A stretch of 64,000 nt of DNA, from NCBI RefSeq assembly GCF_004010195.1, contig NC_057714.1, positions 21,956,044 to 22,020,043 on the forward strand. Reading direction: 5' to 3'. Shown one piece after another: positions 1,638 through 62,252 of the stretch. This DNA comes from Chiloscyllium plagiosum. Its lineage: Eukaryota. A program made the translations under genes and the position numbers. Numbering within the stretch: the first letter of the stretch is position 1; the number at the start of each line of letters is the position of its first letter. The notes beneath the pieces were generated by a model. That model did no database searches and had not been told where the DNA came from. It was given only the letters and a program-made list of their open reading frames with translations.

Positions 1638-2012
1638 AGGAGTCATTGAGGTGTCAGATCTAATCCCATCAGGATCGAGGGCTACAATCCTAATTCACCA
1701 CCCAGGGCTATGTATAACATTATCACATTGGGCAAAGTCTAATGCAATCTCCGATATAAACCCTGACAGAGTCATAATCTTGTGCATCAGTGAGGAACTG
1801 TTTGTACCTGCTGTATGTTTGGTGACAGCCAGACCTGTGATTTGAGTAATCTCATAGGCAGCTATTCTTCCTGGTTCAAAATAAAGGTAATCAACATTAG
1901 GGTACTGTCAAACTGGCCCGCTTAACACTAATACATTGGAACAGAGTCAATTGTCTATCATCAATTCCTGATTCAGACAGGCTTGCAGTACACTCTGACA
2001 CCATTAATGATT

Positions 2013-2196
2013 TTAGGTCTGGGAGCAACTCTGGTGAGAAAAATAGAGTTAACACTTCAAATCTGATATGACTGTTCTTCAGAGTTCTTAAGAATCACAC
2101 CACCCCTGTTCCTTTCTCCACAGGTACTGCCAGAACTGCTGAGGTTCACCAGCATTTTGTGTTTGTTTCAGATTTCTAGCATCCACTGTATTTTTG
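2013..2196. mobile_element. Short fold-back Penelope pLTR-derived element (family 2), decayed
   Basis: Inverted arms similar to 38856-39084. Flanked by ccattaatgatt (2001-2012) and ccatgaatgatt (2197-2208). Confidence 0.65.
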
Positions 2197-2316
2197 CCAT
2201 GAATGATTGTCAGACCAGACTTGTACAATAACAGAACTGACAGATAAACTTGACTTTGGGAACTTGAATTCTTTAATGATCAATGAACAGAGTTCTTGGG
2301 CTGAGCAAACAGTGGA

Positions 2317-2654
2317 ATTCCTACCTTGTGGAAAGAGGTCGTTCAACCCATAGTCTGCACTGACCTTTCAAAGAGTACCTCCACCCAGACCCAGCCACCC
2401 ACTTTATCCCGGTAACTGCACAATTACCATGGCTAATCCATCTTGCGTACACCTGGACAGTACAGGGCAATTTCGCGTGTTCAATCCACCTAATCTGCAC
2501 ACCTTTAGATTGTGGGAGGAAACCACAGCATCCAGCAGAAACCTGTGCAAAAATGGGGAGAGCATGCAAACTCCACACAGACAGTCACCAAAGGCTGGAA
2601 CTGAACCTGGATCCCTGGCAGGGGATTTGAGGCAGCAGTGCCAACCACTGAGCC
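2317..2654 (-). mobile_element. HE1/V-SINE-type tRNA-derived SINE
   Basis: Minus strand reads ggctcagtggttggcactgctgcctca...ggttcagttccagc...tgtctgtgtggagtttgcatgctctcccc, followed by a CR1-like tail. Confidence 0.88.
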
Positions 2655-3522
2655 CATTTGGTTTCAATTCCAGGAGTGCTTTTCTGTGTATGAGATTCAT
2701 AAACTTTGGCTTTGCTAACTTCTAACTAAGCTTTTATATTAATTCATGTAGAACATGCTTCTGTCGGGATCGAGTGTTCATGCCATATATGACAAACAGC
2801 AACTGTACCTGTTAGGATTTCTCAGACACTTGATATTGAGACTGTGAAGTATCGTGATGAACTTGTGCAGGTTTCAGGAACTTAATAACTCAAAAATGAA
2901 TATTCAGTAAAATTATGAAACTAAGATTTTATTTTGGTACTTTTATATAATACCTTAATTAATAGTACACCCTGGAATATATGTATTGTTTTCCAACCTG
3001 GAGCCAGGTTTACCTATAAATGGACTCAGCTATCATAGACATTAAGGTAATTTTCACTGTGCAACACATTGAAACAGTGCTTATTCTGTGTTGTTTAAAC
3101 TCCTAAGAGATATGTGTAATGAGCTGATAATGCAATTAAAATTCTTAGTGTAATTCTAACGTTACATGATCCTGGCCAAATTTTGATCAATCATCAATTT
3201 ACTAACTTATTGTTATGATTAAATGACATTCAAATTGTCCAATCATCAAATAAGGAGCATGGGCATTTAATCTAAAGAAAATGAAAACTTTTTTTTCAAT
3301 ATAGATTTTAGTGTTTACTTGATTTTTAAATGGAGATATTTAATATGCTTAATATTTGTATAATCGCTAATTAAGCAAAAGGAGCTTGGTTTCCATACAA
3401 ATTGCATAACTGCTGCTGAACTTGGAAAATTACATTTTTAGAAACACTGAGTGTATTACATTATCATTCTATGTATTGTGACATGTTCACCCCATTGTTG
3501 GCTAACAATACATTAAGGTGGT

Positions 3523-3649
3523 AAAAACAATAACTGCAGATACTGGAAACCAGATTCTGGATCAGTGGTGCTGGAAGAACACAGCAATTCAGGCAGCATC
3601 CGACGAGCAGCAAAATCGACGTTTCGGGCAAAAGGCCTTCATCAGGAAT
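3523..3649 (-). mobile_element. Solo Penelope pLTR (family 1) with hammerhead motif, in the last ZNF385D intron
   Basis: Minus strand attcCTGATGAaggccttttgcccGAAACGTCgattttgctgctcgtcggatgctgcctg... Confidence 0.8.
3615..3649 (-). ncRNA. Minimal type I hammerhead ribozyme motif
   Basis: CUGAUGA, helix II (ggcc-uuuu-gccc, one mismatch), GAAAC, GUC cleavage triplet, short helix I. Activity not shown. Confidence 0.65.
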
Positions 3650-4225: not shown

Positions 4226-6729
4226 CCTGCCCTGTGTACAGGAGAGAACATTAGGAAAGTAATAATAAAATACTGCAATAATTCAAACAGGGAACTATGC
4301 AGTGATAATCATGGAATTAAATAACATGGAAAGAAACTTGCTTGTGCAGTAACCAACGTGGACTTTGAATAGCTGCATTTTTATTCAGCAAAAAGAAGTA
4401 AAGCAATCCTCCCATAGGAAAATCTAATACACGGATGTTATGAGTAGTTTTTAGTGCTGTAGAAATGTATAGAGTCTGCAAACTACCCATAACAATCAGC
4501 CTTTTTACACAGTATTTTCATGTAATGTTTCCATGTCTTGTGAATAGTCTATAAATGTGTGTCAGGGCATTAAACTCAAGTCCTATATGTATATTTAATT
4601 TCTCTCTGTAGGATGAAACAAAAGAAAATGGGACACTGTGACAATTGTCTTCATTAACTGTCAGCACAGTTCAGCAGCTTGCTGCTTTCTATTTACCCAA
4701 CTATAAACTTGTAAATGGTGTCTTGTGAATTTGTAGCTTTGTGCTGTATATCTCTGATGTAATAATATGTCTAATATGATTTGCCAATGTCAGATGGAAT
4801 GGAATAGCAGACAAACCAATATAATTTTTAGGCATCCTAGTATATCATGTTCGGGAAGGTGTGTGACTGTCTTCATGGAGTTGATTATGTATTTATTTTT
4901 AACTGCAGACAAAGCAAGGTATTAAAGTGTACAGACAGTATAAACACCACACACCTTCTTGTACTTCATTTTATAAAGCAGCTTCATGAATTGTAGTTTT
5001 CCCTTTACACACAACTGAATTGCAATTGTGCTTAATTCTATTTGTCAGAGCTGAAATAGTTGGAGTTAATCTGAATTAATGAATTGGATTTTGCCCACTG
5101 GCTTGAGTTGAGGGAGGGGTGTGTTAGGTGGGTAGGAGGGGTCATTTATCAGTCCTTTCGGTTGAGCCGAATGAAATTAATTGTCCTTCGGGCACTTAAA
5201 TGGTACCCTTTGGCCTACCTCTGAAATGGAAGACCCTCGAAGTGGAGGTCCCGACCACCAAATCACATGCCAACAGTTATTCATCCCTGCTAGTGCAAGT
5301 GGAGAGCAGTGCTAACTGGTGGCACTATACCCATCAGAGGTTCAGGAGGATTGGAAAACCTTAGCACAAAGGTTAGTGAGAGTGGGAGAAATGTCATGGG
5401 TGGGGCTCCTGACAGATGGGGCTGCATCATCCCTCCAAACAGCTTCAGAATGCATGACAATAGAATAATCATGGAATCCCGACAGTGCATTTCGCACAGC
5501 GAGTCTATACCCGACAATCTGAATAGCATCACACGCAGACCCAGTCCTCCACTCTATCCTTGCATTTCCCATGGCTAACCCACTTAGCCTGGACACTTAT
5601 AGGGCAATTTAGCATGATCAATCCTCCTAACGTGTATATTTTTAACTCTGGGAAGAAACCGGACTACCCAGAGAAAACCCACACCGACACGGGGAGAAAT
5701 AGCAAAATCTACACAGCCAATCACCCGAGGGTGGAATCAGACCCAGGTCCATGGTGCTGTGAGGCAGCAGTGCTAACCACAGTGCCACCATGCTACCTAG
5801 AGGAAGGATGAACTTCCACTGCAAGGAAAATCATGCGGATCCCATTAAATCAATAACACATCACTAAAATGCAGTGGTCTCCACCATAATGGTTGTTAAT
5901 TGGCTCATAAATGACATTCTATCACCAGCAGCTGAGGGAACCTACCATGAACCCCTGTCACCATGCAAGTTCATCAGGGATGGTTCTCATACCAGACAGA
6001 GACTGGAGTGGCTTTGCCTCCCTATGGGTCTCAGCATAGTGTGTGGCATTAAATCCAGCCTGATATTCCCATTCAACTGAATTGTTGCACTGAGTAAAGT
6101 AAAATGAAAGAAAATTTCAAAACCTATACTGGTTGTTCAGTTTACTTTTTTTAAAAAACATTCTTTCTCTGCAACTGTAGTTGCAACCAGTTTAAATGAA
6201 TTCCAGATGCGTAATGAAGCCATTTCATTATGGCTTCATATTGAAGTTTTAATGTTTTCTCTCATAACTCATCTGTATAATTTATGTGGCTTAAATGTTA
6301 TTTCTTCATTGTTTCTCACTATTTGGATGTTAAGTTTACGATACAGCCATGCAATGTCATATGCTTCCGAGGAAGGTCTTTAGGAGATTGGTTTGACTTT
6401 TTTTTGTTTTAGCTTCTTTGCATTTTGTTTCATTCCAGCTTCAACAGACTTAAACATAAATGTTCACAGCACAACAAAGCTGGGAAGTCATTTTGTACAT
6501 TATAGCTGTTAAAGCCTGCAGCCTTATTGCAGACTATTAGTAGTTTAGCCAAATGTAAATTGTGACAAGAAAATGATGTTTCCATGTACAGTAATGTCAA
6601 TAAATGCTTTCCCAACCTTGTATGTATCTTTAGTGATTACAAAAATCAAATGAAACTGATAGCTCAGGTCAAAATCTTTAAAGGTGATGTAAAAAGGTTT
6701 GCTGAAATAGAAAATAATTTGTTAATAAA
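4226..6729 (+). other. Probable ZNF385D 3' UTR with candidate poly(A) signals
   Basis: AT-rich sequence following the stop. AATAAA at 4264, 6599 and 6724, ATTAAA at 4921. The true end cannot be determined from DNA alone. Confidence 0.5.
5460..5797 (-). mobile_element. HE1/V-SINE-type SINE
   Basis: gtggcactgtggttagcactgctgcctcacagc head on the minus strand, plus V-domain-like ctccccgtgtcggtgtggg. Confidence 0.85.
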
Positions 6730-11552: not shown

Positions 11553-12311
11553 AGACTAAGTCTCAGGAGAATTGTCAAATGGTCTATGGAAAAAGAGTCA
11601 TACCCATGTGATATTAGGAGGTACTGGATCTACTTTCTTTAGTAATTGCAGTAACCTCAGCCAAATAGAGATTGTTCCAACTGAGTTCAGTAAATATTAA
11701 TTAGTTACATAAATTGGGACCATCTGAAACAGATTTAAGACACACAAGGGAGGATGTTGATCCTAATTATTTTGATTGAAATAAAGCTGAGGGGAGTTAA
11801 ATTTCTCCCATAAGGTTAGAGCAAACTGATGTTAACTACCTTAGGAAACGTGCTTTATACAAGTTAATGAAATGTGTGACAACCTAATTCTCCATGTGAT
11901 TAAAGCCCAGCTCAAACCAAGGGAATAGAAAACCAAATGTAATATTCAGAGAGACCATTTTTAATGAGTGTACAATCCTCCTGGAATTATATATTTTACA
12001 TCAAAGAATAGTTCTGAATGGAGATCATCTGAAGTGCTGCTATGAAGGAAATCATGAGACCGCTGCCTGATTTTAATGAGATTTTATTTTGCTCCTTTCC
12101 AGATGCAAGCCTGTATGTCTTAGGACATCCAGCAGTTATTGTTGCCTGATGGGGAGACTGAGTAACACAATGGCAATGAAGTCAATCTACCTTATCTCAT
12201 GTGGGTTGAAGGTTTAAACATAGTTATTATGTGTAAACGCAGGTTGTAGTTCCAATGTCAGGATAGTTAAACAGGGCACCCATCAATAAATGTCCCAAGC
12301 AATCTTTTTTT

Positions 12312-12608
12312 TTAGATTAGATTACATTACAGTGTGGAAACAGGCCCTTCGGCCCAACAAGTCCACACCGACCCGCCGAAGTGAAACCCACCCATACCCC
12401 TACATTTACCCCTTACCTAACACTACGGGCAATTTAGTATGGCCAATTCACCTGACCCTGCACATCTTTGGACTGTGGGAGGAAACCGGAGCACCCGGAG
12501 GAAACCCACGCAGACACGGGGAGAACGTGCAAACTCCACACAGTCAGTCGCCTGAGGCGGGAACTGAACCCGGGTCTCTGGCGCTGTGAGGCAGCAGTGC
12601 TAACCACT
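12312..12608 (-). mobile_element. Young HE1/V-SINE-type SINE
   Basis: Near-consensus body with CpGs retained. (ctaat)n tail seen as ttagattagatt. Confidence 0.92.
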
Positions 12609-13059
12609 AAGCAGTGCTAAGATTAGCATTGCTAATCTTCATTTATGGAATCAGGTACATTCAATACATTACAATATTCTAAACATCCAGAACCTGAGAT
12701 GGGAGACCAATGGCATTACAGCAATACTTGCAAAACTTGCAAAGAACAGTTAGAAGGTTTCCAGTTCCTGGAGTCTCCTGCTAACTGTATAAAATATTTT
12801 TATTTACTGTACTTCAGCTTATTGTTTTTGTATCATGTTGTACATTGTATCTTGTTGTTTAGCACTGAAGAATTGAAGAATAGTACAGATTCATCATCTG
12901 AGGGAAGATTTCAGATGATTATCAGTAGGTGGCTTCCATGCCCATGTTAATGCCATGAAAGTTAACAGGGATCCGAATCAATGCTGAGGATGCTCAGAGT
13001 CACTATCCACTGGCTGTATACCTACCATCATGCTACCTCTGGGAGGAAACCTGTTGGGA

Positions 13060-16899: not shown

Positions 16900-17555
16900 G
16901 AGCAAATTCTCTGCTAGTTGGAGTCTTACCTGACGCATAGCAAGATACTTGTGATTGTTGAAAGTCAGTCATCTCAGCTCCAAGACATCTCTGCAGGAGT
17001 TCCTCACCATGGTGTCCTAGGCCCAACCATCTTCAGCTGATTCATTAGTGACCTTCCATCCATCAGAAGGTTGAAAGTGGGAATGCTCACTGATGATTGC
17101 ACAATGTTCAGCATCGTTCACGACACCTCAGATACTGAGACAGTCCATTTTCAAATACAATATCTAGGCTTACGCTGACAAGTGTCCAGTAACATTTGCA
17201 TCACACAAATGTCAGTCAATTTGTATGATTTCTGATGAAGGGCTTATGCCCAAAACATTGATTCTCGTGCTCCTTGGATGTTGCCTGACCTGTTGTGCTT
17301 TTCCAGCAACACACTTTCGACACAAATGTCAAGCAATGACCATCAGATGATCTAATCACAACCCTTGGTGTTCCATGGTGTCACCATTACTGAATCCACT
17401 TCTATCAATATCCTGGGGCTAACCATTGACCAGAAACTCAACTGGACCTACCACATAACCACAGTGGCTACAAGAGCAGGTCAGAGGAATACTCCAGCAA
17501 GTAACTCACCTCCTGACTCCCCAAAGCATGTCAACCATATTCAAGGCACAAGTCA
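16900..17555 (+). mobile_element. CR1/L2-clade LINE RT fragment (second family)
   Basis: Degraded GVP.GVLGPTIFS.FISDLPSIIRRLKVGMLTDDCTMFS...VTFASHKCQAMTI...INILGLTIDQKLNWT. Confidence 0.8.
17215..17319 (+). mobile_element. 105 bp pLTR/hammerhead insertion (family 1) with 12 bp TSD
   Basis: acacaaatgtca at 17203-17214 and 17320-17331. The insert contains CTGATGAagggcttatgcccAAAAC. Confidence 0.85.
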
Positions 17556-18639: not shown

Positions 18640-19028
18640 TCATTCGACCTCAAGTTGGAGTTTGGTGATCAGGCTTCAGGCTGTGTATCTGTAATTGGGC
18701 CTCAGGCTGAGATTGGGAGCTTGGGCCTTTGGCTGTGATTGGGAGAATGGGTCTCAAAATGGGATTGGGAGAATGGGTCTCAAGGTTGGATTGGGAGCTT
18801 GGGCCTCAGACTGGGATTGGGAGATTGGGTCTCAAAATGGGATTGGGAGAATGGGTCTCAAGATGGGATTGGGAGTTTGGGCCCAGGCTGGGATTGGGAG
18901 ATTGGATCTCAAAATAGGATTGGGAGAATGGGTCTCAAGATGGGATTGGGAGTTTGGACCTCAGGCTGGGATTGGTAGCTTGGACCTCAGGATGGGATTG
19001 GGAGTTTAGGCCTCAGGCTGGGATTTGA
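18640..19028. repeat. G-rich minisatellite, ~26 bp unit, about 14-15 copies
   Basis: Unit gggattgggagaatgggtctcaagat and variants, e.g. gggattgggagtttggacctcaggct. Confidence 0.92.
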
Positions 19029-19649: not shown

Positions 19650-19822
19650 AAAATAAAACAAGGAACTGTGGATGCTGCAGGTGTGAAACAAACAAAAAAC
19701 AGAAATTGCTCGGAGAAACTCAACCAGTCTGACAGGAACTGTGAAAAGAAAAACAGAGTTAACATTTTGAGTGAGACTTCTTTAGAACATTTTGAATTTC
19801 CCCAGCAACTTATTTCTTGTTT
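19650..19822. mobile_element. Decayed pLTR-derived element (family 2)
   Basis: aaaacaaggaactgtggatgctg...gaaattgctcggagaaactcaaccagtctgacag...agagttaacattttg, with a short inverted remnant. Confidence 0.55.
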
Positions 19823-22488: not shown

Positions 22489-22490
22489 GT

Positions 22491-23607
22491 TATAGAATCA
22501 TTGAGGCATACAGCATGGGAACAGACCCTTTGGTCCAACCAGTCCATGATGACCATATTCCCAAACTAAACTAGTGTCACTAGGCCCATGTCCCTTCAAA
22601 CCTTCCCCAATCACAAACTTATCCAAATGTCTTTTAAACATTGTAACTGTATCTGCATCCACCGCTTCCTCTGGCAGTTCATTCCACACACAAATCCCTC
22701 TCAGTGTAAAAAAAAGTTGTCACTCATTTCCTTTTTAAATCTTTCTCCTCTCATCTTAAACATATGCCCCCTTGATTTGAACTCCCTCACCCTAGGGAAA
22801 AGATCTTTGTCATTCACCTTATTTATGCCCCTCATGATCTTATGAACCTCAATAAATCTCAACCTCCTACAACCAAGTAAAAGACGTCCCAGTTTTTCCA
22901 GTCTATTTTTGTATCTGAAATCCCTCATTCCTGGCAATATCCTGGCTAATCTTTTCTGGACCGTCTTCAATTTAATAATATCCTTCGTATGTCAGGGTGA
23001 CAAGAACTGAACACACTAGTCCAGATGAGGCCTCACCAACATGCTTTACAACCTGAACATGATGTCCCATCTTTTATACACAAAACTCTGAGCAATGAAG
23101 GCAAGTGTGCTATACACCTTCGTATCCACTCTGTCTACCTGTGACACAAATTTCAAAGAATTATGGACCTAACTTCTTGGTCTCTATGCTCTACAACACT
23201 ACCCAGTGCCCTACCATTAATTGTTTAAATGTAGTCCTTGTTTGTATTATCAAAATACAATAGCTCTCATTTATCTAACTTAAACTCCTCAATCCATTGA
23301 CCCAATTGGTCAAGATCACTTTGTAATTTTAGATAACCTTCTTCACCATCCACTACACCACCAATTTTGGTGTCAGCTGCAAACTTACTAATATTGCCTC
23401 CTATATTCTCATCCAAATCATTTGTATAAATGACAAAGAAAAGTTGACCTAGCACCAATTCTTGTGGCACACTACTGGTCACAAGCCTCCAGTCTGAAAA
23501 ACTACCCTCCACTACCATTAAGCCAATTTTGCATCCCATTGGCAAGTTCAGGCTGAATCCTATATTATCTAACTTTACTAATTAGCCTACCATGCAGAAC
23601 CTTGTCA
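22491..23607 (-). mobile_element. CR1 LINE 3' 1.1 kb
   Basis: ORFs with SVPQELVLGQLFFVIYTNDLDENIGGNISKFAADTK and WNELPEEAVDA. Tail present. Confidence 0.92.
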
Positions 23608-24015
23608 GGTTCGTCCTCTCCAATGGGCAAAGCTGCTGCAAGGAAGGTTAAAACTTGACAGTGTCAGTTCCAGGATGAATTTCCAGTCAATTCAGAGTAT
23701 ATCCACTGAAGTTAAAGTGAGAGTGTGCTTACTGTTAGGGAGGCTTTGAGCCTGTGTGTTGTTTTGAAGCAAAACAAAATGATACTTGAGAGAAATTTGA
23801 TACATGTTTGGCCCCTTTGTTTGCATTCCTACTTTTTTTGTGCCTGTAGACCAAATAAAATCTTGTTTGGAAGAAAATAAATGCAAACCAAGAATAACAT
23901 TAACATTTTAAGTGGTGAGAAACTAATATCCCAAAGATGCACAGCCATTCCAGTGGTAATTTTACAGAGACAAGCGATTTGAGTGCTGCCATTTGGGAGC
24001 TTCATACTCTCACCT

Positions 24016-24050
<35 letters not shown>

Positions 24051-24056
24051 CGTCTC
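24016..24056. repeat. (CT)n microsatellite
   Basis: tctctctctctctctctctcttctctctctctctc. Confidence 0.95.
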
Positions 24057-39642: not shown

Positions 39643-39785
39643 GATGTTGTCTTGATGCTTTCATGCATCCTTTCTTTAGTAATACCTGCAGTAATTTTAC
39701 AGTTGCATCTTGCTGCATCATGTTCTTGACGTGAATAAAAATGTTTGTCTTGCAAATTCAATGTTTTGACTTGGTCAATGAGCAC

Positions 39786-41406
39786 AGAGTCGAGAATGTG
39801 GTGCTCAAAAAACACAGCTGGTCAGGCAGCATCCAAGGAGCAGGAGAATCGGCGTTTTGGGCATAAGCCCTTCATCAGGAATGTTTGAAATGAAGAGGTC
39901 AAGGGCAGGTAACAGGCCAGCACGAGGTATCCAGGTGGATGGCGTGTGTTGGAGGCGGGAGAAGGGGTCCTCGGTGGGTGGGCGGGTATCTTGGTTAAAA
40001 AAGTAGGCACGGAGGTGGAGGCAGGGGAAGAAGTTCGCAGTTCAAGTTTAAGTTTGCAGCATCTGTCAAACTCATTAATCTGGGACTGTACAGGGATAAA
40101 GGTGAGGCTTTTACTGAGGACTAAACATTCGTCCTCAGTGAGGGGGAGGTCTGGGGGAATGGTGAAAACATGGCCGGGATGGGAGCTAGGACCTGGGACC
40201 TGGAGTGGGTCTGGAGTTTGAGGTGGGGGCGGAGACAGTTGCTTGAGTGGGCGTGGTTATCAGGGCTGTTGTGACGTCACTGACAGAAGTGACGCTCACA
40301 AAGGGGGAGGAGGTAATGCTTATGGCAGTGTTAACGGAGGTGGAGGTGGCATCACAAGCAGTGAGGACAATGTTACTGTTAGGTACTCGGCTGGTGACAT
40401 CGTGACATCAAAGATAGAGCCTTCCAGCCGGGTGGAGGTGACTGCCATGGTGGCAACTGCGGGGGCGGAAGTGACATGTAAGGTAGGTATCATGTCTGTG
40501 CTGGTGAATCTAGCAGTGCTGGTGTATCCTGCAGTGGTGGTTGTCTCTGCAGTTGCCAAGGTGGTTGGGCGGACGGCAATCATGGAGGTTTTGTGGTCAG
40601 CAGTGGCTGTGAGGCGTGCGGCAGTGTCGGGGGCTGAAGTGGCATCATCAATCGCTCCGGCGGTCATGAAAAGAGCGGCCATGTGGCTAATGGCACCTGG
40701 GCGGTGCCAGAGGGCAGGGGAAGGTTCTAGAAGGTTTGAGGAAACCTGTGTATGGGGGAAGTACATGAAAGTTTATTTAGCTTACATTCTTTTATGCCTG
40801 ATGCAGTAGGGGAATACTGTTTGTTGAGCGCATGTATCCTTCTGAGGATGTAGAAATACAGAGGTCCACTGCAGGTCTGGGAAAGTGTGGCTCTGAGCTG
40901 GGGCAGAGCTGACTGTAGGTAGAGTAGATGGCGGCGCATAGCTGATAGTATTGAGCGGAGGATCCGGAAAGAGAATTGTTGTTGAAGGTTTCTGATTTGT
41001 AGTCGAGACTGGGTATTCTGTTCAGGTCCAAACTGGGTTGGTCCGGAGTCCATGTGGGATCAGATGGTTCCGAAGGCAGGTACTGAGGGAGGAGATGTGG
41101 CTGTGGTAGCGAGTCTGCTTGAGGACGTGACTGAAGAGCTTCAGGGCAGAGGAGAGGACCTGGGGGGAGGATGCAGTGAGGGAGGAACTCACAGAGATTC
41201 TTGTAGAGGGAGGAGGAGAACTTCTTCAAGGTAGGCATCCTTGGAAGAGGCTTCACAGTAGGGTTGAAATCAACTAGGAGAAAGTGAGGACTGCAGATGC
41301 TGGAGACCAGAGTCGAGAATGTGGTGCTGAAAACGCACAGTAGGTCAGGCAACATCCAAGGAGCAGGAAAATCGAGGTTTCAGGCATAAGCCCTTCATCT
41401 GGAATG
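39786..41406 (-). mobile_element. Non-autonomous Penelope-like element: pLTR - N-terminal ORF fragment - pLTR
   Basis: ~100 bp direct repeats at 39786-39883 and 41309-41406. Frameshifted minus ORF includes HISSLSTCLRNHLIPHGLR, ILRSILSAMRRHL and VFTIPPDLPLTEDECLVLSKSLTFIP (PLE LSKGL.F motif). TSD core tgagcacagag. Confidence 0.85.
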
Positions 41407-41429
41407 CTCCGTCCAGTGAGCACAGAGCA

Positions 41430-45594: not shown

Positions 45595-45776
45595 ACTATC
45601 CAGACCTCCCAGTCACTGCTCATTTTAACTCCCATTCCCACTCCTTTTCTGACATGATCATCCTCAGCTCCACCCCATTGCCACAGCGATCTAAACTGCA
45701 AATTTGAGGAACAACACCTCATCTTCTGCCTGGGCAGCCTACAACCTGGAGGACTCAGCATTGAGTTCACCAATTT
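45595..45776 (+). mobile_element. Penelope GIY-YIG endonuclease C-terminal fragment
   Basis: PDLPVTAHFNSHSHSFSDMIIL...KFEEQHLIFCLGSLQPGGLSIEFTN is the typical PLE C-terminus (HFN...H; L.TL.P.GLN). Confidence 0.8.
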
Positions 45777-45992
45777 GGGTGGCATGGTGACTCAATGGTT
45801 AGCACTGCTGCCTCACAGCACCAGGGACCCAGGTTAAATTCCTGCCTCAGGCAACTGTCTGTGTGGAGTTTGCACATTCTCTCCGTGTCTGCGTGGGCTT
45901 CCTCCGGGTGCACCGGTTTCCTCCCACAGTCTAAAGATGTACAGGTCAGGTGAATTGGTCATGCTAAATTGCCTGTAGTGTTTTAGTAAATA
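45777..45992 (+). mobile_element. HE1/V-SINE-type SINE (3'-truncated)
   Basis: gggtggcatggtgactcaatggttagcactgctgcctcacagc... Confidence 0.9.
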
Positions 45993-45994
45993 GG

Positions 45995-46795: not shown

Positions 46796-47069
46796 TGAGG
46801 CCAATTTTTAAAATGAATTATTTCTATATCTGTTGGCATTAATCTTTCACGATACTGATGGCCTTAACTTTCATAGTTGTAGCAATTTGACTTTTATATA
46901 ATTTCCCCCAACTTGGAGACCCCACAGACTAGAAAGCATTTTTGCCAAGATCACAGGTTTTTCTGAACTAAATTGAAAAAGATCTTGATTCTGTTTGAAT
47001 TAAACATTGGATTCTTATGAACTAAGACCATCTTAGGTTTCATTTTTCAGCTAACATTGAGTTTTTTTT

Positions 47070-47379
47070 ATTAGATTCCCTACCGTGTGCAAACAGGCCC
47101 TTTGGCCCAACTAGTCCACACTGACTCTCTGAAGAGTAAACCACCCTGACCCTTAACCCTAACTAACACACCGAATTGTACGGGCAATTTAACATGATCA
47201 ATTCACCTAACCTGCACGTCTTTGGACTGTGGGAGGAAACTAGAGCACCCGGAGGAAACCCACGCAGACACGGGGAGAATGTACAAACTCTACACAGACA
47301 GTCACCTGAGGCTGGAATCGAACCCGGGTCCCTGGCGCTGTGAGGCAGCAGCGCTAACCACTGAGCCACTGTGCCGCCC
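47070..47379 (-). mobile_element. Near full-length HE1/V-SINE-type SINE
   Basis: gggcggcacagtggctcagtggttagcgctgctgcctcacagcgccagggacccgggttcgattcc head, with tail. Confidence 0.93.
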
Positions 47380-47791
47380 AACAGTGACATTCAAATATTT
47401 TTGAATTTATTTTTCCCATGAAGCCTAGTGAGGGTTTTTATCAAACCTGTCTCTTTACTTAGCTATCACAGCCCTGTGGTGTCTCTCATGTCTGTGTTCT
47501 GTCCCAGTTTACCACACGTCGTTCCCAGAAAAACTCAGCACTCAGTGGATTTTCTGGAATCCACTGACATCGCTGGTGGCCACACCATCTTAAAACCTTG
47601 TTGTGCATCCGGACAAGCACAGTCCATCTGAAGCTGCCTGCATGGTTCCTGTATTTGCCCTAGGTTTGTCAGATGGGGAAATCATCATCCACTTTGCGGA
47701 TAAAGTCCTCGATGTCCAACTGGATGTGATGCTCCCGATATTGGGCATCCTTTTTCCTCAGTACCAGCAGAGGAGGTAACAACACCACTCC

Positions 47792-50700
47792 TGTAGTGAC
47801 TAAAACAAGGTCAGCCAGATGGATATCATAGAATAGGAGTTCCCTGATTGGGGTTGTTAATCTGGTCCAATCAGGGAGCCCTGGCTGACAGATGTAAACA
47901 GGAGCTTTTTCCCTTTTTGGGAGCAGTGGGAGACAGAGCGGAGGTGACGTGAAGACCAGGAGGGTGCCGAGAAGGTAAGGAAATTGTTTAAATTCTTACC
48001 TTCAAAGCCCGCAGCCTTTTTCCTGTTCGGGAGCAGTGGGAGAGAGAGCAGAGGTGACGTGGAGACCAGGACAGTACCGGGAAGGTAAGAACTTAGTATA
48101 TATTTGGGCAGCAACTAAACCTGAGATACTACACGTGTAGTATCTCCCTCCCACTTCCCCCCACCCCCCCAACCCACCCAGAAGAAAAAGACCCTGCAAG
48201 GTAAGGCTTTTATTTTTTTCTTTTTCTTTTCGTGCATATATTTAAGTGCATTGTTTGGTTTTAGTTAGTTGGTATAAGGCTAAGGCTTACAATGGCAGGG
48301 GACCTCAGACCTGTGGCATGTGCCTCTTGCTTGATATGGGAGCTCAGGGAACTGGCTGACTCTTACACTTGCAAGAAGTGTGTCCAGCTCTTGTTGACCG
48401 CATGATGGCTCTGGAGCTGTGGATGGACTCACTGCGGAGCATCCGAGATGCTGAGGAGGTTGTGGATAGTACGTTGAGTGAACTGGTCACACCGCAGGTT
48501 AGAATTGCTGAGGGAGCCAGTGAATGTGATCAAAAGCCATAAAAAGAGTAGGAAGGCAATGCAGGTGTCCCCTGCGGTCATCTCCCTCTAAAACAGGTAT
48601 ACCATTTTGGATTCTGTTTGGGGAGATGGCTCACCAGGGGAGGGCAGCAGTTGCCAAGATCATGGCACCTTGTTGGGCTCTGCTGTTCAGAAAAGCAGGA
48701 AAAAGACTCATAGGGCCATAGTCATAGGGGGTTCTATTGTAAGGGGAGTAGATAGGTGGTTCTGTGGCTGAAAACGGGACCCCTGGATAGCAAGTTGCCT
48801 CCCAGGTGCTTGGGTCAGGGATGTCACCAATTGACTGCAGAGCATTCTAAAAGGGGAGGGTAAACAACCAGTTGGCTTGGTGCAAATATGTACCAATGAT
48901 GTACGTAAAAAAATGAGATGAGGTCCTGAAAGCAGAATTCAAGGAGCTAGGAAAGAAGTTAAAAAGGAGGACCTCAAAGGTAGTGACCTCTGGATTACCA
49001 CCGATGCCGAGTGCTATTCAGCATAGAAATGAAAGAATAGGCAGGATGAACATGTGGCCTGGGAGATCGTGTAGGAGGGAGAGGTTCAAATTTGTTGGAC
49101 ATTGGGATCAGTTCTGGGGAAGGTGGGACTATTACAAACTGGATGGTCTACATGTGAACCAGACTGGAACCAATGTCCTTGAGGAAGATTTTTGCTACTG
49201 CTATTGGGAAGGTTTTAAACTATTGTGGCCGGGGGCTGGGAACCAGAAGAGAAGATAAGTAGGCAGCAAGATGGAAATTGGAGACTGTAAGAATCATGAA
49301 GATAGCATTAATAAGGGCAAGAGTAGGCAGACAGCAGGTGAACGCAAAAGAACTGCTGGCCTGAAGTGCATATACTTTAATGCAAGGAGTATAGTGGGTA
49401 AGGCAACAAACTTAGGACTTGGATTGGTGCCTGGGGGTATGACATTATTGCAATCACAGAGACTTGCTTGAAGGAAGGGCATGATTGGCAACTAAACGTT
49501 CCAGAATATAGATGCTTCAGACAGGACAGGGAGCTTTGTAAAATATGGGGAGGGGTTACATTGCTGATCAGGGATGTTATCACGGCTGTACTAATGGAAG
49601 CCACTATGGAGGGCTTGAGTAGTGAGGCATTATGGGTGGAGCTGAGAAATAAGAAGGGTGCAGATACATTGTTGGGGCTGTATTACAGACCTCCCAACAG
49701 TGAGCATGAGGTAGAAAAACAAATAGGTAAACAGATTATGGAAAGATGTCGAGTCAACAGGGTGTGGTGATGGGAGATTTTAATTTTCCCAACATTGACT
49801 GGGATACACTTAGTGTCAGAAGTCTGGATGGGGCAGAATTTGTAAGAAGCATCCAGGAGAGTTTTCTAGAGCAGTATGTCAATAGTCCGACAAGGGAAGG
49901 GGCCATATTGGACCTGGTATTGAGGAATGAGCCAGGCCAGGTGATAGAAGTTGCAGTGAGGGGTTTCTTTGGGAACAATGACCAAATTCTATAAGTTTTA
50001 GAATACTCGTAGACAAAGATGAGAATGGTCCTAATGGGAGAGTACTAAACTGGGCCAAGGCCAATTATATCAAAATTAGGCAGGAGCTGGGGAATGTGGA
50101 TTGGACACAATATTTGAAGGGATGTCCACATTTGAAATGTGGGAAGCTTTCAAAGATAGGTTAAAGATAGTGCAGGATAGGCATGTCCCATTGAAGACAA
50201 AGGATAGGAAAGGCAAGATTTGTGAAACGTAGATGACAGGAGAAATTGTACAACTAGCCAAGAGGAAAAGGGAAGCGTACGTAAGGTCCAGGCAGCTAAG
50301 AACAGAATGGGCTCTGGAAGAAAAAGTAGGGAAGATGTGTTGGGTAGGCTAGAAGTTATTAAGGTGGACAAATCCCCAGGACCGGATGGGATCTATCCTA
50401 GGTTGCTGAGGGAGGCGAGAGAGAAAATAGCTGGGGCCCTGACAGATATCTTTGTAGTATTCTTAAACACAGGTGAGGTGCCAGAGGACTGGAAGGCTGC
50501 TCATGTTGTCCCCCTGTACAAAAAGGGTAGCAGGAATGTTCCAGGTAACTACAGATCAGTGAGCCTGACGTCAGTGGTGGGAAAGTTGCTGGAGAAGGTA
50601 CTGTCAAAGAATACTGGAGAATATAGATAGACTGGAGATTAGGGTGGAGAAGTGGCAGATGGACTTCAATCAAGGCAAATGTGAGGTGAAGCATTTTGGG

Positions 50701-51591
50701 AAGTCTAATTCTAGAGCAAATTATACAGTAAACGGAAAAGCCTTGGGAAAAGTTGATGAGCAGAGCGATCTGGGAGTTCAGGTCCATTGTACCCTGAAGG
50801 TTGCTGCACAGGTGGATAGAGTGGTCAAGAAGGCATATAGTATGCTTGCCTTCATTGGACATGATATTCAGTATAAAAGCTGGCAAGTCATGTCAAAATT
50901 ATGCAAGACTTTAGTTCAGCCGCATTTAGAATATTGTGTTCAGTTCTGGTCGTAACATTCCCAAAAGGATGTGGACACTTTGGAGAGGGTACAGAGAAGG
51001 TTTATGAGGATGGAGGGTGCTAGCTATGAAGAGAGGTTGAGTAGGTTAGGATTATTTTCATTAGTAAAAAGGTGATTGATGGGGGACCTGATTGAGGTCT
51101 ACAAAATCATGAAGGGTATAGACAGGGTGGATAGAGATAAGCTTTTTCCCAGGGTGAGGGATTCAATAACGAGTGGTCACACATTCAATGTGAGAGGAGA
51201 AAAGTTTAAGGGGGATATACACGGAAAGTACTTTACGCAGAGGATGGTAGGTGCCTGGAACGCGTTGCCAGCAGAGGCAGTAGAGACAGGCATGATAGAT
51301 TCATTTAAGGTGTGTCTGGACAGATGCATAAGTAGGTGGGGAGCAGAGGGATACAGATCCTTAGGAATTAGGTGATAGGTTTAGACAATAGACTTGCATC
51401 GGCTCACACTTGGAGGATTGAAGGCCCTGTGCCTGGGTTGTAAATTTTCTTTGTTGTTTGCTCTTTGAGTGTCAGAGGTTCTGTTCAGTCTGAGAGCTGG
51501 CTCTGAGGGAGCTGGATCAGAGTTAAGGACTCTTCACATGTAAATAATGGTGACTTGGCGATGGAATACCAGCCTCTGTGGAGTTATTTCA
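47792..51591 (+). mobile_element. Solo LTR (47792-47904 + 51467-51591) split by a CR1 insertion
   Basis: TG...CA termini (tgtagtg...tatttca) and 5 bp TSD actcc at 47787-47791 and 51592-51596. Confidence 0.85.
47905..51466 (+). mobile_element. CR1 LINE with 5' UTR, decayed ORF1, endonuclease and RT end; internally deleted
   Basis: ORF1 esterase remnants (DGLHVNQTG), APE motifs CIYFNARSI, YYRPPNS, MGDFNFPNIDW, ILDLVL. Jumps near 50310 and 50605. Tail. Flanked by gag/gag. Confidence 0.92.
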
Positions 51592-51976: not shown

Positions 51977-52250
51977 TGGTAGCTCAGTGGTTAGCTCTGC
52001 TGCCTCACAGCGCCAGGGTCCTGGGTCTCATTCCAGCCTCGGGTGACTGTCTGTGTGGAGTTTGCCCATTCTTCCCTGTATCAGCGTGGGTTTCCTCCAA
52101 GTCTCCTGGTATTCCAATGATGTGCAGGTTCGGTGAATTGGCCATGCTAATGTGTGGGTTAGGGGCATTAGTCATGAGTAAATGTACGGAGTCGGTGTGG
52201 ACCTGTTGGGCCGAAGAGCCTGTTTCCACACTGTAGGAATTCTATGATTC
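51977..52250 (+). mobile_element. HE1/V-SINE-type SINE
   Basis: ggtagctcagtggttagctctgctgcctcacagcgccagg...gggccgaagagcctgtttccacactgtag. Confidence 0.88.
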
Positions 52251-54292: not shown

Positions 54293-54611
54293 TGGGTGGC
54301 AAAGTTAGCACTGTGGTTAGCACTGCTGCCTCACAGCGGTAGGAACCCGAGTTTGATTCCAACCTCGGTCAACTGTCTGTGTGTAGTTTGCACGTTCTCC
54401 CCGTATCTGCGTGGGTTTCCTCCGGGTGCTCCAGTTTCCTCCCAAGATCCAAAGATGTGCAGTTCAGGTGAATTGGCCATGCTAAATTGCCCATAATGTT
54501 CGGTGCATTAGTCAGGGGGAAATGGGTCTGGGTGGGTTACTCTCGGATGGTTGGTGTCGACTTGTTGGGCCAAATGGCCTGTTTTTACACTGTAGAGAAT
54601 CTAATCTAATC
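54293..54611 (+). mobile_element. HE1/V-SINE-type SINE
   Basis: tRNA-like head, V-domain and ctaatctaat tail. Confidence 0.9.
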
Positions 54612-54975: not shown

Positions 54976-55186
54976 GGAGAAAGTGAGGACTGCAGGTGCT
55001 GGAGATCAGAATCAAAACATGCAGTGCTGGAAAAGCAGAGCAGATCAGGCAGCATCCGAGGAGCAGGAGAGTCGACATTTTGGGCGTTCAGGAATGATGA
55101 AGGGCTTATGCCCGAAACGTTAACTCTCCTGCTCCTTGGATGTTGCCTGACCTGTTGTGTTTTTCTAACCGCCACACTTTTTTGAC
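54976..55186. mobile_element. Head-to-head inverted pLTR pair (family 1)
   Basis: Left arm ggagaaagtgaggactgcag...gagtcgacattttgggc. Right arm tgatgaagggcttatgcccgaaacgttaactctcctgctcc... Confidence 0.85.
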
Positions 55187-55659
55187 ACTATTCCCAAATC
55201 CGGTAGACATTCCACAAGTTGATTTTCTTGAGATCAGCTACCAAACTGATTTTCCCAGTCCACCTGCATTCTATTTTCTGTCCCACATCCTGACTACTCC
55301 TGGGAGAACTTTTTACAATTTCCATCCGTCTTTTTCCCTTTGTAGTTTCTTAACTCTCTCCACACAGATTCCACATCTTCTGACTCCTTATCAGTTTTTG
55401 CTTTAAATTTAATTTCATTTCTTACTAACAAGGCAACCATTCCACCTCTGCCAATTTCCCCGTCCAATCACCACCCAATGAACTTATGGGTGATCTGCCA
55501 TAGCACTGTTTTGTGCTGGGCCCGTGATCCTGGGCTTTAATTTATCTTGTTTAAAAAAAAAACTTCCAAGCTATGAGCCAAATAAAGTTAACAAAATAAA
55601 GCACCTCTTGCCTTCTGCAAAGGAGTCCCACACTAAATCCAAGTTCTCCAAACTATATA

Positions 55660-55873
55660 AAAACTAAATGAACTGCAAATGCTTGAAATCAGAAAGAGAA
55701 ATAGAAGTTGCTGGAAAAGCTCAGTGGTCAGACAGCACCTGCACAGAGGAATCAGAGTTAAAGTTTCGGGTAAGGTGACTCTTTTTCAAAACTGCAGCTA
55801 ACTCTGATTTCTCTTCCATAGGTGCTGCTGCCACATCTGCTGAACTTCTCCAGGAATTTCTGTTTTTTGCCCC
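55660..55873. mobile_element. Fold-back pLTR element (family 2) with 12 bp TSD
   Basis: ccaaactatata at 55648-55659 and 55874-55885, with inverted arms. Confidence 0.8.
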
Positions 55874-56057
55874 CCAAACTATATATTCACTCAGACGGTG
55901 TCTCGCTCTGAATGTGATCTCTACTTCCTGACCGTGCAAGGTTTAGAGGGCCCCTGGGTCTGTTGGTGATTGGTGGAGGGCTGCACAATCAAACACTGGG
56001 CTGGAGTCACCACGACAGATATCCCTCACTATCCAAAAGTAGAGTGTTCCTGCCAAA

Positions 56058-56246: not shown

Positions 56247-56639
56247 GAATGGCTCTGCCTTTCACTTTGGGAATTGTTGCTGTTCACTTTCCATCCGTTA
56301 AGTGAAAGGATTGGAAACTGCATGTCACTGAGGGGAGAAGCTGTAGCAGTAAGATGCTAATGCATGTAAATAGACCACATTGATCTCTGGCAAGAATCTC
56401 TTCTCACTACTCAACACTTGTTTGGCACATCGAACATTTTGTTCCCAACTGAAGGAAGTGCCTTCCTGTCAATCCCAAGTGATTCCTTCAACTTTCTTTC
56501 CTATGCTCATGTTACTCAAAGCCTACAAAAGTTCTGTCCTTTGTTTAGCACCTTCCGCACTCTTGCTCCTCCAGCAGAGCATCGCTTCACAGAGTCAGTG
56601 TCCCTGACAGTATGGGGACAGGGATTTCCAGCAGAGTGG

Positions 56640-57115
56640 TTACAGGGATCCCTGGCTGAGTGGGTACAGGGGTCCGCCTGGCTGAGTGGGTACAGGGGAC
56701 CCCTGGCTGAGTGGGTACAGGGGACCCCTGGCTGAGTGGGTACAGGGGACCCCTGGTTGAGTGGATACAGGGGTCCCCTGGCTGAGTAGGTACAGGGGTC
56801 CCCCTGGCTGAGTGGGTACAGGGGTCCCCTGGCTGAGTGGGTACAGGGGTCCCCTGGCTGAGTGGGTACAAGGGTCCCCTGGCTGAGTGGGTACAGGGTT
56901 CCCCCTGGCTGAGTGGGTACAAGGGTCCCCTGGCTGAGTGGGTACAGGGTTCCCCCTGGCTGAGTGGGTACAAGGGTCCCCTGGCTGAGCGGGTACAGGG
57001 CTCCCCTGGCTGAGTGTGTACAGGGGTCCCCTGGCTGACCGGGTACAGGGGTCCCCCTGGCTGAGCGGGTACAGGGCTCCCCTGGCTGAGCGGGTACAGG
57101 GGTCCCCCTGGCTGA
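56640..57115. repeat. 25-26 bp G-rich minisatellite, ~19 copies
   Basis: Unit ccctggctgagtgggtacagggg(a/t)c. Confidence 0.96.
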
Positions 57116-58647: not shown

Positions 58648-58948
58648 TCATAGAATCCCTATTGTACAAATAGAGACCCATCAAGTCTGCACCAAACCTC
58701 CGAAGAGCGTCCCACTCAGATCCACCTAATCCATGCAACTCCGCTTTTATCATGATTAACCCACATATCTTACATATCCCTGAACACTACAGGGTAATTT
58801 AGCACGGCCAATCCACCTAAACTGCACAACCTTGGACTGTGGAAGGAAACCAGAGCACATGGCGGAAACCTGCCCAGACATGAGGAGAACACGCAAACTC
58901 CACACCCGAGGCTGGAGTCGGCCCAGGTCTCAACCACTGAGCCACCCT
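58648..58948 (-). mobile_element. HE1/V-SINE-type SINE (diverged)
   Basis: ggtaatttagcacggccaatccacctaa...ttggactgtggaaggaaaccagagcac. Confidence 0.82.
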
Positions 58949-60749
58949 CCAATCTCTCTATAATCTTTGTTCCCCTTCCTATTTATCTTTCTATAGCTAA
59001 TTTGACTCTCATTCACCAACTTTACCTAAATCTCATTTTCCATTATGCTTTGCTCCTGTTCCTGTCACAGCCCTTGTATCTGGTTGTTTGTTATGGCATT
59101 GTTGATTGTATTATTCACTCAAATCCCAGTTGCCCTCTTCTTGCTATTATCAGTTCATACTTCCAGAAAGTTATGAGGCAAGCATGTTTTAAGCTATAGA
59201 ATATCTACATAAAGGCATAATTCAGAGCTGTCCCACCATAGCAAACTCATCACTATCAACATAGCCATTTATAAATAAACTTACATCTGGGCGGTTGCAA
59301 AAAATGGGAATAAAAATACATCGGCCCACCATATCAGCACTTAAGATTTCTTTTGCAAATTGCCTCAAAGACAGGAATCAATCTCCCTTTTGGCTTAATG
59401 CAGTCTTTCATCTTATGGAGTTATTTTTACTTCAAGTTAACATTCCTTTCTGTCTAAAAAGACTAGTTGCAATGTTTTTACGCCTATTTTGTTCGAGAAG
59501 TATGTTGCTTATTGCTTATATAATCTAAAACATTTCCAGTGATTCCATTCTTCCAGCATGACGATTCAAAGAATAGCTCATTATCATGTAGAAATAAATT
59601 CAATCGCTCTTAATGATGAATAAGGCTGAAGGAAAACAGAGTGGTTCAGTGCAGTGTAAATGCTCGAACAACATTTGCTGGAGATGAGTAATCCATTCAG
59701 CTGCTGCCAGTGTAGAATATCAAAAATGAAAGGCCTATTAAGTCCTAACAAATAGTTAGACAGTTTTGCAGTCTCATCAGATTCTGAATCAATGCAATTG
59801 TCATGCTAATGAAAACCATTTCAGATTGGCATTACTTCCTGGATCACTTTCAATGTGAAATGAAAGTGGCTTAACCATGATAAAACTCCTCTCAGTAGTG
59901 CTGTCTATGATCGAGAATCAGGTCAAGATTAACATGGGATTGCAGCTGATATATTATTATTCCTCCAGAATAATGTATTTTTTCGAATGTATGATGTACG
60001 ATATAACCGCTTGTTGCTTTTCAATGAGCATCTTCACATAGTTATTTGCAATATAAATCAGAATTGAATGGTGATGCTCCTCTTCAGGGATGGGCTCCCT
60101 CTCTATCTCTGTACCAGCCTTAACCCATTCTCCTGAGTTGTGATAAATTATAATAAGTGTTCAATTAATCTTTAATCTCATTGACTGAGTTGATTTGTGA
60201 GACATTGTTTGAATGAAAACAATTCCACCCTGTTTAAAAATGGCTGCAGTAGCCATCTTTGCTGGCAAACTGGCCAAGTTCCACAGGGAAATACAAAGTG
60301 GATGCCTAAATAATATTGCTGAGTATAAATAGTGTAAATGCATCATATCATCTGATGGACGTTAGTGCTTTATAGGGTTTGTTAGGGTTTGGAAGGGTTC
60401 AGAGGAGTGTATTAAGTATCATCCAATATGATAATATCATATGGATTTGGTGAAACAACAGCTCTGAATATTGAAAAAAATTGAGCCAGCATCCAGGCCC
60501 CCTATAGTCTACTCAACAATGACAACCGTACCACTATACCATGTAAACTTGATTGCTATCATGCAGTTAGCAATATCCTGTTTTATTCCAAAAGATTGGT
60601 CTTATTAGACCACCAGTGGTTTTTCACTAACACACCAGACAATCAGGTTCTTTCAATCCTAAGCAAAAAGCAGGATGGTTACATCAAATCTACTTGATTC
60701 CCCACCATTTCTGACATTGTGAAGGCAGAATGAAGGATGGATTAGCTTG

Positions 60750-61442
60750 TCAACCATTTCTTTGTTCCCGATGATAAATTACCCGGTTTCTGACTGTAAG
60801 GGACTTACATTAGTTTTCACCAATCTTTTGCTCTTTGGATACCCCTAGAAAATTTTACAGTAATATTTTTTGGTCCCACCAAGTTTACTCTCTTATTCTA
60901 TTTTCCCCTGCTCAATCAATCCCTTTGCTGATTTCCAAACTGTTCCCAATCCTCAGGTTTAATGTTTTTTTCTTGCTAGTTTGTATGCCTTGTTTTTGTG
61001 TCTAATACAATCTCTAACTTCCCTCATAAGCGATTGCTTGACCACTGTTCTCTTTGCACGTTTGTGCCAGACAGGAGTAAACAGTTTGTGTAGTTCAACC
61101 ATTACCTCTTTGAATTCTTGCCATTGCCTACCCACTGTCATTCCCTTCGCTATTTCAGCATTTCCCAATCCATTATAACCAACTGACACTTCAAACCATC
61201 ATAGTTTCACAGAAGATTCATGAGCGTGGTCTCAGAATCAATTACCTCACTCTTCATATTGATGAAGAATTCTATTATACTATAGTCGCTCAATCCCAGG
61301 GGATCTCCCACAACTACATTATCAATGATTCCTTTCTTATGACATGGTACCCAATCTAAAATGGTCTGTTCTGTAGTTGGTTCCATGATGTATTGCTCCA
61401 GAAACCGTCCCGAATACATTCTGGGAATTCCTCCTCTGCAAC
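60750..61442 (-). mobile_element. Old CR1 ORF2 endonuclease/linker fragment
   Basis: FLEQYIMEPTTEQTILDWV...VGDPLGLSDYSIIEF. Confidence 0.8.
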
Positions 61443-62125
61443 ATTATGACAACATGATTCACGCTCGCCCACTCTCACTAAATGCCTGTAACATCTTCCA
61501 CATTTGCTTTCATCGACACCACCACTACTAACCCTGCATACCCTCTGCACTGCCTTGCTCAGGACAACTCCCCACGGCCCCAAAAGTAACAGTGCACCAC
61601 TCAATTTCACCTGTATTAATTCCTTCCTATCCCTCATTCCATGAAGAAAACAGCACCCCAATGGGCAGGAAGAGTTAAGGCAAGTGTTGGTCTGCCTGAC
61701 ATTTGGCTCATCACCCCTTAGGTGGAGTACACTCGGATCGCATCCAGCCAGAGCAGCTGAATGACTGTGTCCAAGCCCCTGGACTAGTTTCGAAGTCTGC
61801 CTTTGACTCTCTATGCCCAACACTCCCTAAGTGAAGGCTATTCCCATTAACTCAATTGTGGCTTGCTGGCAACCACAAGAACCTTCATGCCTTTGTCTTC
61901 ATTAAATAATAAGGCAAGGTAAGGCAAGGCAGAAGTAATATGAATCTGGTATCTCTGGCTAAGGGGGCAAAATGCAAAAAAGCAAGGCAATGTAGGGATT
62001 CTGCACGCATCCAGATAGGAGCAGAGTAAGTGAATGCTATGACAGTGTGTGAAGAGCCAGTGCACTTGCTCATGGTCTGGGCCAGACCATGAGCAAGTGC
62101 ACTGGCTAAGCACGATTTGCACATG

Positions 62126-62252
62126 TGGTCTTGGACTGGGGTGTACAAAGTTAAAAATCACACAACACCAGATTATAGTCCAACAGGTTTATTTGGAAGC
62201 ACTAGCTTTCAGAGCGCTGCTCCTTCATCAGGTGTTTTGTGATTTTTAAGTT
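62126..62252 (-). mobile_element. pLTR (family 3) with hammerhead motif
   Basis: Minus strand cacCTGATGAaggagcagcgctctGAAAGCTAgtgcttccaaataaacctgttggactata...tttgtacaccccagtccaag. Short inverted terminal piece at 62236-62252. Confidence 0.8.
62200..62234 (-). ncRNA. Minimal type I hammerhead ribozyme motif with intact core
   Basis: Helix I cac/gug, CUGAUGA, helix II ggagc-agc-gcucu, GAAA, palindromic AGCU, CUA triplet. Confidence 0.7.

Follow-up and report, generated by a model that had tools for sequence, protein, structure and literature searches.

Does the genome of Chiloscyllium plagiosum carry a distinct class of short mobile repeats with hammerhead ribozymes, or are such repeats the remains of Penelope-like elements (PLEs)? 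The question is raised by a 64,000-nucleotide stretch of contig NC_057714.1 (positions 21,956,044 to 22,020,043, forward strand; hereafter the window, numbered from 1). A preliminary description of its letters had noticed dispersed units of 100-230 bp with minimal hammerhead motifs, ascribed them to the pseudo-long terminal repeats (pLTRs) of Penelope elements, sorted them into three families and proposed a non-autonomous class resembling short interspersed elements (SINEs). We found that the short hammerhead-motif repeats are real in the window and very abundant in the genome. We consider it highly probable that they are the hammerhead pLTR ends of three PLE families, inserted by the full element's enzymes as dead-end by-products.

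A unit is present at all 12 of the sites listed earlier, as judged by profile search and reading of the window. The family profiles found nine family-1 arms (including an extra stub at 17-49), seven family-2 arms and one family-3 arm, and gave no match when the reversed 64-kb window was scanned; the family-1 copies of the window align with one another at E 1e-17 to 1e-32. Single arms measure about 90-130 bp and head-to-head pairs 160-240 bp, and there are 12 units per 64 kb in the window as compared to one per 4.1 kb in a genome sample. This sample comprised 140 10-kb stretches taken at round coordinates from the large contigs (not strictly random), or 1,348,574 non-N bases (1.35 Mb) of a 3.56-Gb genome. 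It contained 326 loci (181 of family 1, 93 of family 2 and 52 of family 3) that cover 3.0% of its bases, which extrapolates to roughly 0.8 million loci in the whole genome, many of them decayed. Family 3 is distinct as proposed; however, families 1 and 2 are akin 3' of the motif (70-83% identity).

Two of the listed sites, 39850 and 41370, are not separate units but the two ends of one 1.6-kb insertion at 39790-41406 on the minus strand, in which two pLTRs enclose 1.4 kb of broken open reading frame (ORF), with an 11-bp target-site duplication (TSD) at 39779-39789 and 41417-41427. Coding sequence of PLEs is seen at this insertion and at one piece absent from the earlier list:

17-183, minus strand: family-1 PLE ORF-start piece fused to the final 33 nt of a pLTR from this family
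39790-39882, minus strand: family-1 short unit, G12 lost; its first base directly abuts the broken ORF
39883-41275, minus strand: 5' part of the family-1 PLE ORF with stops and frameshifts, stopping short of the reverse transcriptase (RT) core
41276-41405, minus strand: family-1 5' pLTR, U4 lost

In broken genome copies of family 1, the window ORF continues into RT, CxxC linker and GIY-YIG motifs. Among the long-frame loci, 11 of 12 have a same-strand family-1 unit about 2.3-3 kb downstream of the match, and the twelfth has only the unit's last half. In family 3, a 437-aa RT-CxxC-GIY-YIG frame, which contains RT motifs and YIGET, is found 650 bp upstream of one unit, and its relatives are annotated as RVT_1 (PF00078) and GIY-YIG (PF01541). 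The closest relatives of the element protein are found in bamboo and epaulette sharks (84-88% identity). The family-2 unit is preceded by a stretch resembling a PLE C-terminus. All three families thus adjoin RT/GIY-YIG sequence, which together with the insertion at 39790-41406 rules out that the units never occur attached to PLE ORFs and backs the Penelope pLTR origin proposed in the preliminary description.

The linker C-x4-C-x2-C is present in families 3 and 1 and, by the criterion of PMC8557442, points to the Neptune type. Two features of endonuclease-containing (EN+) PLEs are found here: RT followed by a C-terminal GIY-YIG in one ORF (family 3), and direct or inverted pLTRs with an optional 30-40 bp tail and 5' truncation. 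A Pfam scan gave a single sub-threshold RVT_1 match, in one of six pieces. Long open frames were considered as candidates for an intact element; none of 12 loci inspected has a long RT frame and several contain N runs, so we do not claim an intact element. Three loci (L121, L194 and L189) have family-1 insertions inside or just after family-3 units, and in two others (L032 and L041) family-1 elements contain kilobase-size inverted duplications of ORF-interior sequence. By eye, family-2 units (for example at window 38940-38960, minus strand) have a pyrimidine tract and CAG, resembling a splice acceptor, directly before an ATG at the ORF start that family 1 also has.

To describe unit ends, we count positions (+n) from the first base of the 5' strand of hammerhead helix I, which in family 1 is the first letter of ATTCC; cleavage is predicted after +32. 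The units have two fixed 3' ends spaced about 30-40 nt apart: family-1 units end at about +85-100 or +128, family-3 units at about +87 or +120. In the genome sample, two-arm inverted loci are head-to-head in 82 cases as compared to one tail-to-tail, and 72 of the 82 combine a long and a short arm. A TSD-like match, mostly of 12-16 bp, flanks 33 of 50 tested pairs versus 1.2% of mismatched controls. Long-arm 3' ends abut the TSD directly and have no A-tail, and pair centres vary between copies. In family 3, four insertions of 3-4 kb have the same long-plus-short inverted layout with TSD-like flanks. An EN+ PLE insertion unit is described as a pLTR, an inverted 5'-truncated copy and a 30-40 bp tail, and the published insertion signature as an inverted pLTR, optional tail and TSD (PMC3846280, PMC8557442). 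The paired loci here correspond to this signature. In the window, head-to-head pairs account for the listed sites 2040, 38990, 55095 and 55755:

2015-2192, both strands: family-2 pair, decayed (minus arm 2015-2079, plus arm 2104-2192), without convincing TSD
38859-39084, both strands: family-2 pair of a long minus arm and a short plus arm, G12 lost at 38990
54977-55185, both strands: family-1 pair of a long minus arm and a short plus arm, no core intact, without convincing TSD
55660-55873, both strands: family-2 pair with 12-bp TSD at 55648-55659 and 55874-55885

The pair at 38859-39084 has a TSD of about 13 bp (starts at 38843 and 39085) and folds as a single long hairpin; C3 is lost at site 55095. 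Long hairpins of -131, -114 and -78 kcal/mol are predicted at 38860-39100, 54976-55190 and 55660-55870, and a MIR533 match in the Rfam scan, scoring under the gathering threshold, is the hairpin located at 38.9 kb. Miniature inverted-repeat transposable elements (MITEs) were rejected as an identity for the pairs, the arms being unequal in 72 of 82 and the centres variable. We also dropped the idea that hammerhead stems act as microhomology at pair centres, because small fillers are present at 31 of 54 family-1 junctions and overlap of at least 3 nt at only 10.

Are the short units nevertheless a class of their own? A SINE was rejected: there is no Pol III head, no A-rich or simple-repeat tail, and no sign in the family-1 tree of masters of their own. 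A tRNA-gene search of the window found none, and Rfam gave no tRNA, 5S or 7SL-type match there. In the tree (123 copies), short and extended copies interleave, with 40 label changes as compared to 38.6 ± 2.7 after shuffling, and each of four diagnostic subfamilies has solo, paired and extended members, although the tree uses few columns, has weak support and leaves 42 rows unassigned to subfamilies. The 5' ends of single units form a ladder that runs into the endonuclease gene. Leaving out copies near stretch ends or N runs, 49 of the 107 family-1 singles extend beyond -20, 43 start at -20 to +10 and 15 start inside the unit; the corresponding counts are 14, 40 and 23 for family 2 (n = 77) and 20, 9 and 5 for family 3 (n = 34). 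The SINE-like class proposed earlier is thus unsupported, given the missing tRNA head and A-tail and the interleaved tree.

A broader version of this idea, in which the short units are an independent SINE- or MITE-like class with their own masters, moved in trans by a PLE enzyme, appears improbable. It would account for the rarity of ORF 5' parts (one small match versus 78 family-1 unit matches in 383 kb) and for the many short units with a sharp 5' end and TSD; moreover, pLTR sequences are able to move in trans (PMC3846280) and pLTR-related retrozymes occur in vertebrates (bioRxiv 10.64898/2026.07.22.740005). However, the family-1 tree contains no short-unit clade, the pair centres are copy-specific, unlike copies of a single hairpin master, tRNA head and A-tail are absent, and the candidate promoter motif described below lies outside the short unit. 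Non-LTR retrozymes themselves were also rejected: Tandem Repeats Finder detected no tandem array of units in the window, and 2 of 181 family-1 loci are simple direct pairs. It is likely that the full element's own RT and GIY-YIG enzyme, rather than a separate short master element, insert the units.

The motif itself is supported, on column majorities, as a minimal type I hammerhead with core, helix II, short helix I and palindromic tetramer. The consensus does not lack the conserved core: column majorities give the full minimal hammerhead with a palindromic ACGU/AGCU in families 1 and 3, and the family-2 profile begins inside the core, with the remaining motif visible in the best family-2 copies. 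Helix I of family 1 is four positions long, and most copies have a U-U mismatch in it. Of the 128 family-1 copies that span the core, 73 keep it intact (50 of these also with helix II and palindrome), as do 22 of 47 family-3 copies (17 likewise) and 8 of 47 family-2 copies. One helix II pair covaries in family 2 (G-C/A-U, p=0.004). In contrast, a strict core descriptor did not single out the units, with 4 matches in the window, just two of them at listed sites, whereas 30 shuffles gave 1.6 on average and at most 4; the Rfam scan gave no hammerhead among 9 window matches at E<=5. In energy folding of monomers and dimers, the family-3 monomer formed helices I and II and the family-1 monomer did not. 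The remaining units in the window are as follows:

3521-3649, minus strand: family-1 long unit with intact core and ACGU palindrome and one helix II mismatch
17228-17319, plus strand: family-1 short unit, G12 lost, 12-bp TSD at 17203-17214 and 17320-17331, 13-nt 5' filler
19663-19785, minus strand: family-2 long unit, core decayed
33616-33748, plus strand: family-1 long arm from helix II (33633-33748), G12 lost, without CUGA
33616-33633, minus strand: inverted 18-nt stub of the hammerhead 5' half, beside that long arm
34462-34584, plus strand: family-1 long unit, core and helix II intact, ACGU palindrome lost
62115-62234, minus strand: family-3 long unit, core intact at 62231-62200, AGCU palindrome, AAUAAA at about 62193-62188

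Read by eye, the full catalytic core is thus present at 3615, 34464 and 62231, while the other sites named earlier are decayed. The palindrome that had been noted in the best-preserved copies is indeed the majority state by column and is kept at 3615 and 62231; at 34464 it is gone. Across the sample, the median distance from the column majority is 11%, 19% and 10% in families 1, 2 and 3. G12, which belongs to a CpG, is missing from 19% of family-1 and 28% of family-3 copies, comparable to other CpG sites (15-24% in family 1); this loss at the ordinary CpG rate indicates that the copies are not maintained for catalysis. Unit copies decay like other DNA.

The 5' end of the units is sharp, and it lies at the hammerhead edge. 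In the singles defined by a TSD (n = 32), 20 start at -12 to +10 and one at the +32 cut site. Among pairs less than 120 bp apart, a count that favours short arms, the upstream-most arm starts at -10 to +10 in 45 of 54 family-1 and 11 of 14 family-3 cases, and arms starting at +28 to +38 number 7 of 108 in family 1 and 0 of 28 in family 3. A 5'-end peak at the predicted cut site was therefore rejected for both TSD-defined singles and pair arms. Extended copies have a motif 30-40 nt upstream: TTATCT in 28 of 40 family-1 copies, and a TATAAA-like motif in 5 of 9 family-2 and 14 of 18 family-3 copies, with none in a control window. Most short stubs do not have it. We infer that transcription starts at about +1, the 5' edge of the hammerhead, some 30 nt behind a TATA-like motif. 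Among PLEs, a rotifer pLTR has a TATA-initiator motif (PMC3846280), while a Drosophila element has an internal TATA-less promoter (PMC2377424).

These ends bear on the RNA that was copied. Under the rolling-circle model for PLEs and retrozymes, the templates would have been circular or cut by the ribozyme, and the hammerhead would have shaped the copies. The core and palindrome as majority state in all families and the covariation in family 2 (p=0.004), which imply that the motif was kept in the source elements, speak for this; the cut-site ends (1 of 32 singles, 7 of 108 and 0 of 28 pair arms), the lack of a unit array in the window by Tandem Repeats Finder and the lizard PLE that used mainly uncut RNA in vitro (PMC11167929) speak against it, and we regard such templates as very improbable. 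No RNA read of family 1 or 3 ends at the predicted cut site. Hammerheads of this kind are proposed to cleave as dimers (Lunse et al., as cited in PMC6765202). The template was likely uncut RNA.

Family 3 also contains a poly(A) signal. At +42-47, 56 of 67 copies have a hexamer (AATAAA in 33, ATTAAA in 23). In run X19, of 2818 placed family-3 reads, 339 have a poly(A) end 12 nt past it and 416 have one 15 nt past it; most reads are in sense orientation, and coverage drops from 1158 to 437 at this site. The signal is used, and it lies upstream of the putative RT start sites. The poly(A)-ended reads may come from host transcripts running into family-3 copies. Family-1 reads cover both strands and have no poly(A) end, as read-through would give.

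Units that directly follow ORF-interior sequence are rare in family 1 (4 of 310), and all four, including window 39882, begin no more than 4 nt from +1; a fifth junction, window 17-49, joins at +96, not at the hammerhead edge, and was removed by the filter. Such junctions hint at cDNA that reached the RNA 5' end and then jumped, with deletion from longer insertions as another possible source. In family 3 the poly(A) site precedes the putative start sites, so that a polyadenylated element RNA would contain them at the 5' end alone. This allows a bolder reading, doubtful but possible, that the pLTR shares the layout of a retroviral LTR, with TATA, start, hammerhead, poly(A) site and RT start sites in this order, and uses strong-stop cDNA and a jump. 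The first product would be a target-primed cDNA of 90-120 nt; once sealed, it would yield the solo and head-to-head units in their hundreds of thousands, whereas longer copies would arise if it jumped to the repeat at the RNA 3' end. A pLTR-internal poly(A) site and strong-stop transfer in PLEs were not found described in a literature search whose scope left out subscription papers, supplements and Repbase/Dfam.

In the reading that we prefer, of pLTR ends as by-products of PLE insertion, the enzyme would nick the target and reverse transcription would start at an internal site about 90 or 120-130 nt from the RNA 5' end. A copy that extended as far as this end, at the hammerhead edge, would be a solo unit, and priming from both nicked strands, one per site, would produce a head-to-head long-plus-short pair. 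A start in the 3' pLTR or a template jump would produce longer copies, and the short stubs, mostly without the upstream motif, would be dead on arrival. Alternatively, solo units could be what remains, as with solo LTRs, after the pLTRs of a longer insertion recombine or the sequence between them is deleted. Rotifer solo pLTRs without TSD are read in this way (PMC3846280), and for most singles here a TSD was not found; recombination leaves unexplained both the long-plus-short pairs and the 5' pile-up, which is present also at ORF-to-pLTR junctions, making this origin extremely improbable.

Several observations weigh against the by-product reading. Only 32 of 231 singles gave a TSD in a search that reached 330 nt upstream, and the fillers at family-1 pair junctions are a further difficulty. 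The upstream motifs were picked after viewing the data, and TTATCT of family 1 is a poor TATA match. RNA reads have no start pile-up, although a poly(A)-primed single-cell library may hide one. The RT of family 2 was not seen, only its C-terminal end, and an uninterrupted full-length ORF was not recovered among sampled or retrieved copies. The non-CpG core of family 1 is slightly better kept than downstream sequence (4.1% vs 5.8%, p=0.024; for family 3, p=0.20), which may reflect ascertainment or subfamily variation. Finally, a minor self-copying subfamily could be hidden in the weakly supported tree.

The general kind of repeat is already described, and these are three further families of it. 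Like EN+ PLE insertion units (PMC3846280, PMC8557442), they combine RT-CxxC-GIY-YIG, direct and head-to-head pLTRs, a one-arm tail, TSD and a TATA-like motif; in contrast to those, most copies here are no longer than 90-240 bp, and together they make up about 3% of sampled DNA; their 5' boundary at the hammerhead edge is sharp, a feature not found described in the available parts of these papers. The motif resembles the minimal hammerheads of metazoan PLEs (Cervera and De la Pena 2014, PMC4209133), which are type I without helix III, with a palindromic 15.1-16.1 tetramer, an extra A before helix II, several families per genome and mostly single motifs. Already in 2014, thousands of mostly single minimal hammerheads were ascribed to truncated PLEs (PMC4209133); descriptor counts there were about 4,000 in coelacanth and 9,000 in Xenopus, as compared to roughly 0.8 million by profile here. 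In PAc, a Poseidon element of Anolis, reverse transcription begins at two internal sites that bound the tail, the enzyme cuts both strands of the target, and in vitro it copies mainly uncut RNA (Frangieh et al. 2024, PMC11167929). The two 3' ends here, with the tail between putative internal RT starts, putative nicking of both target strands and a probably uncut template, are similar. Whereas the PAc ORF begins in helix II (PMC11167929), the ORF here likely starts downstream of the hammerhead; a further difference is the poly(A) site of family 3, which follows the hammerhead and precedes the putative RT start sites. Non-LTR retrozymes (bioRxiv 10.64898/2026.07.22.740005) share the type I hammerhead, pLTR relationship, non-coding nature and dispersed monomers; however, they are by definition tandem arrays with a hammerhead per unit, whereas paired units here are inverted.

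The window also holds other repeats. One of 200-320 bp without a hammerhead, possibly a shark HE1-type SINE, occurs eight times (2382-2654, 5532-5797, 12306-12620, 45775-45982, 47062-47381, 51977-52244, 54293-54609 and 58722-58929). Many broken long interspersed element (LINE) RT fragments, which we take to be of CR1 type, lie on both strands (208-1637, 22489-27283, 35037-37891 and 50163-51460), and a 285-aa open frame at 31849-32706 (plus strand), with a Cys-rich start and a GDS-type motif, resembles CR1 ORF1 esterase-like proteins. There are minisatellites at 18694-19025, 28695-29308 and 56634-57115 (periods 26, 19 and 25 bp) and a near-perfect 53-bp palindrome at 62055-62107, just past the 3' end of the family-3 unit.

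The population is thus ordinary PLE debris, but it is large, at about 3% of sampled DNA, and a quarter of its loci form 90-bp hairpins that risk being miscalled as MITEs or microRNA genes. Its sharp ends record PLE copying, a cycle still called undefined in the parts of the PLE literature available. The 5' pile-up, the family-3 poly(A) site and the jump-like junctions offer specific predictions for the existing in vitro system and argue that ribozyme cleavage did not shape the copies. If the strong-stop reading is true, one mechanism would account for pLTR, tail and inverted ends, joining features of LINEs and retroviruses.

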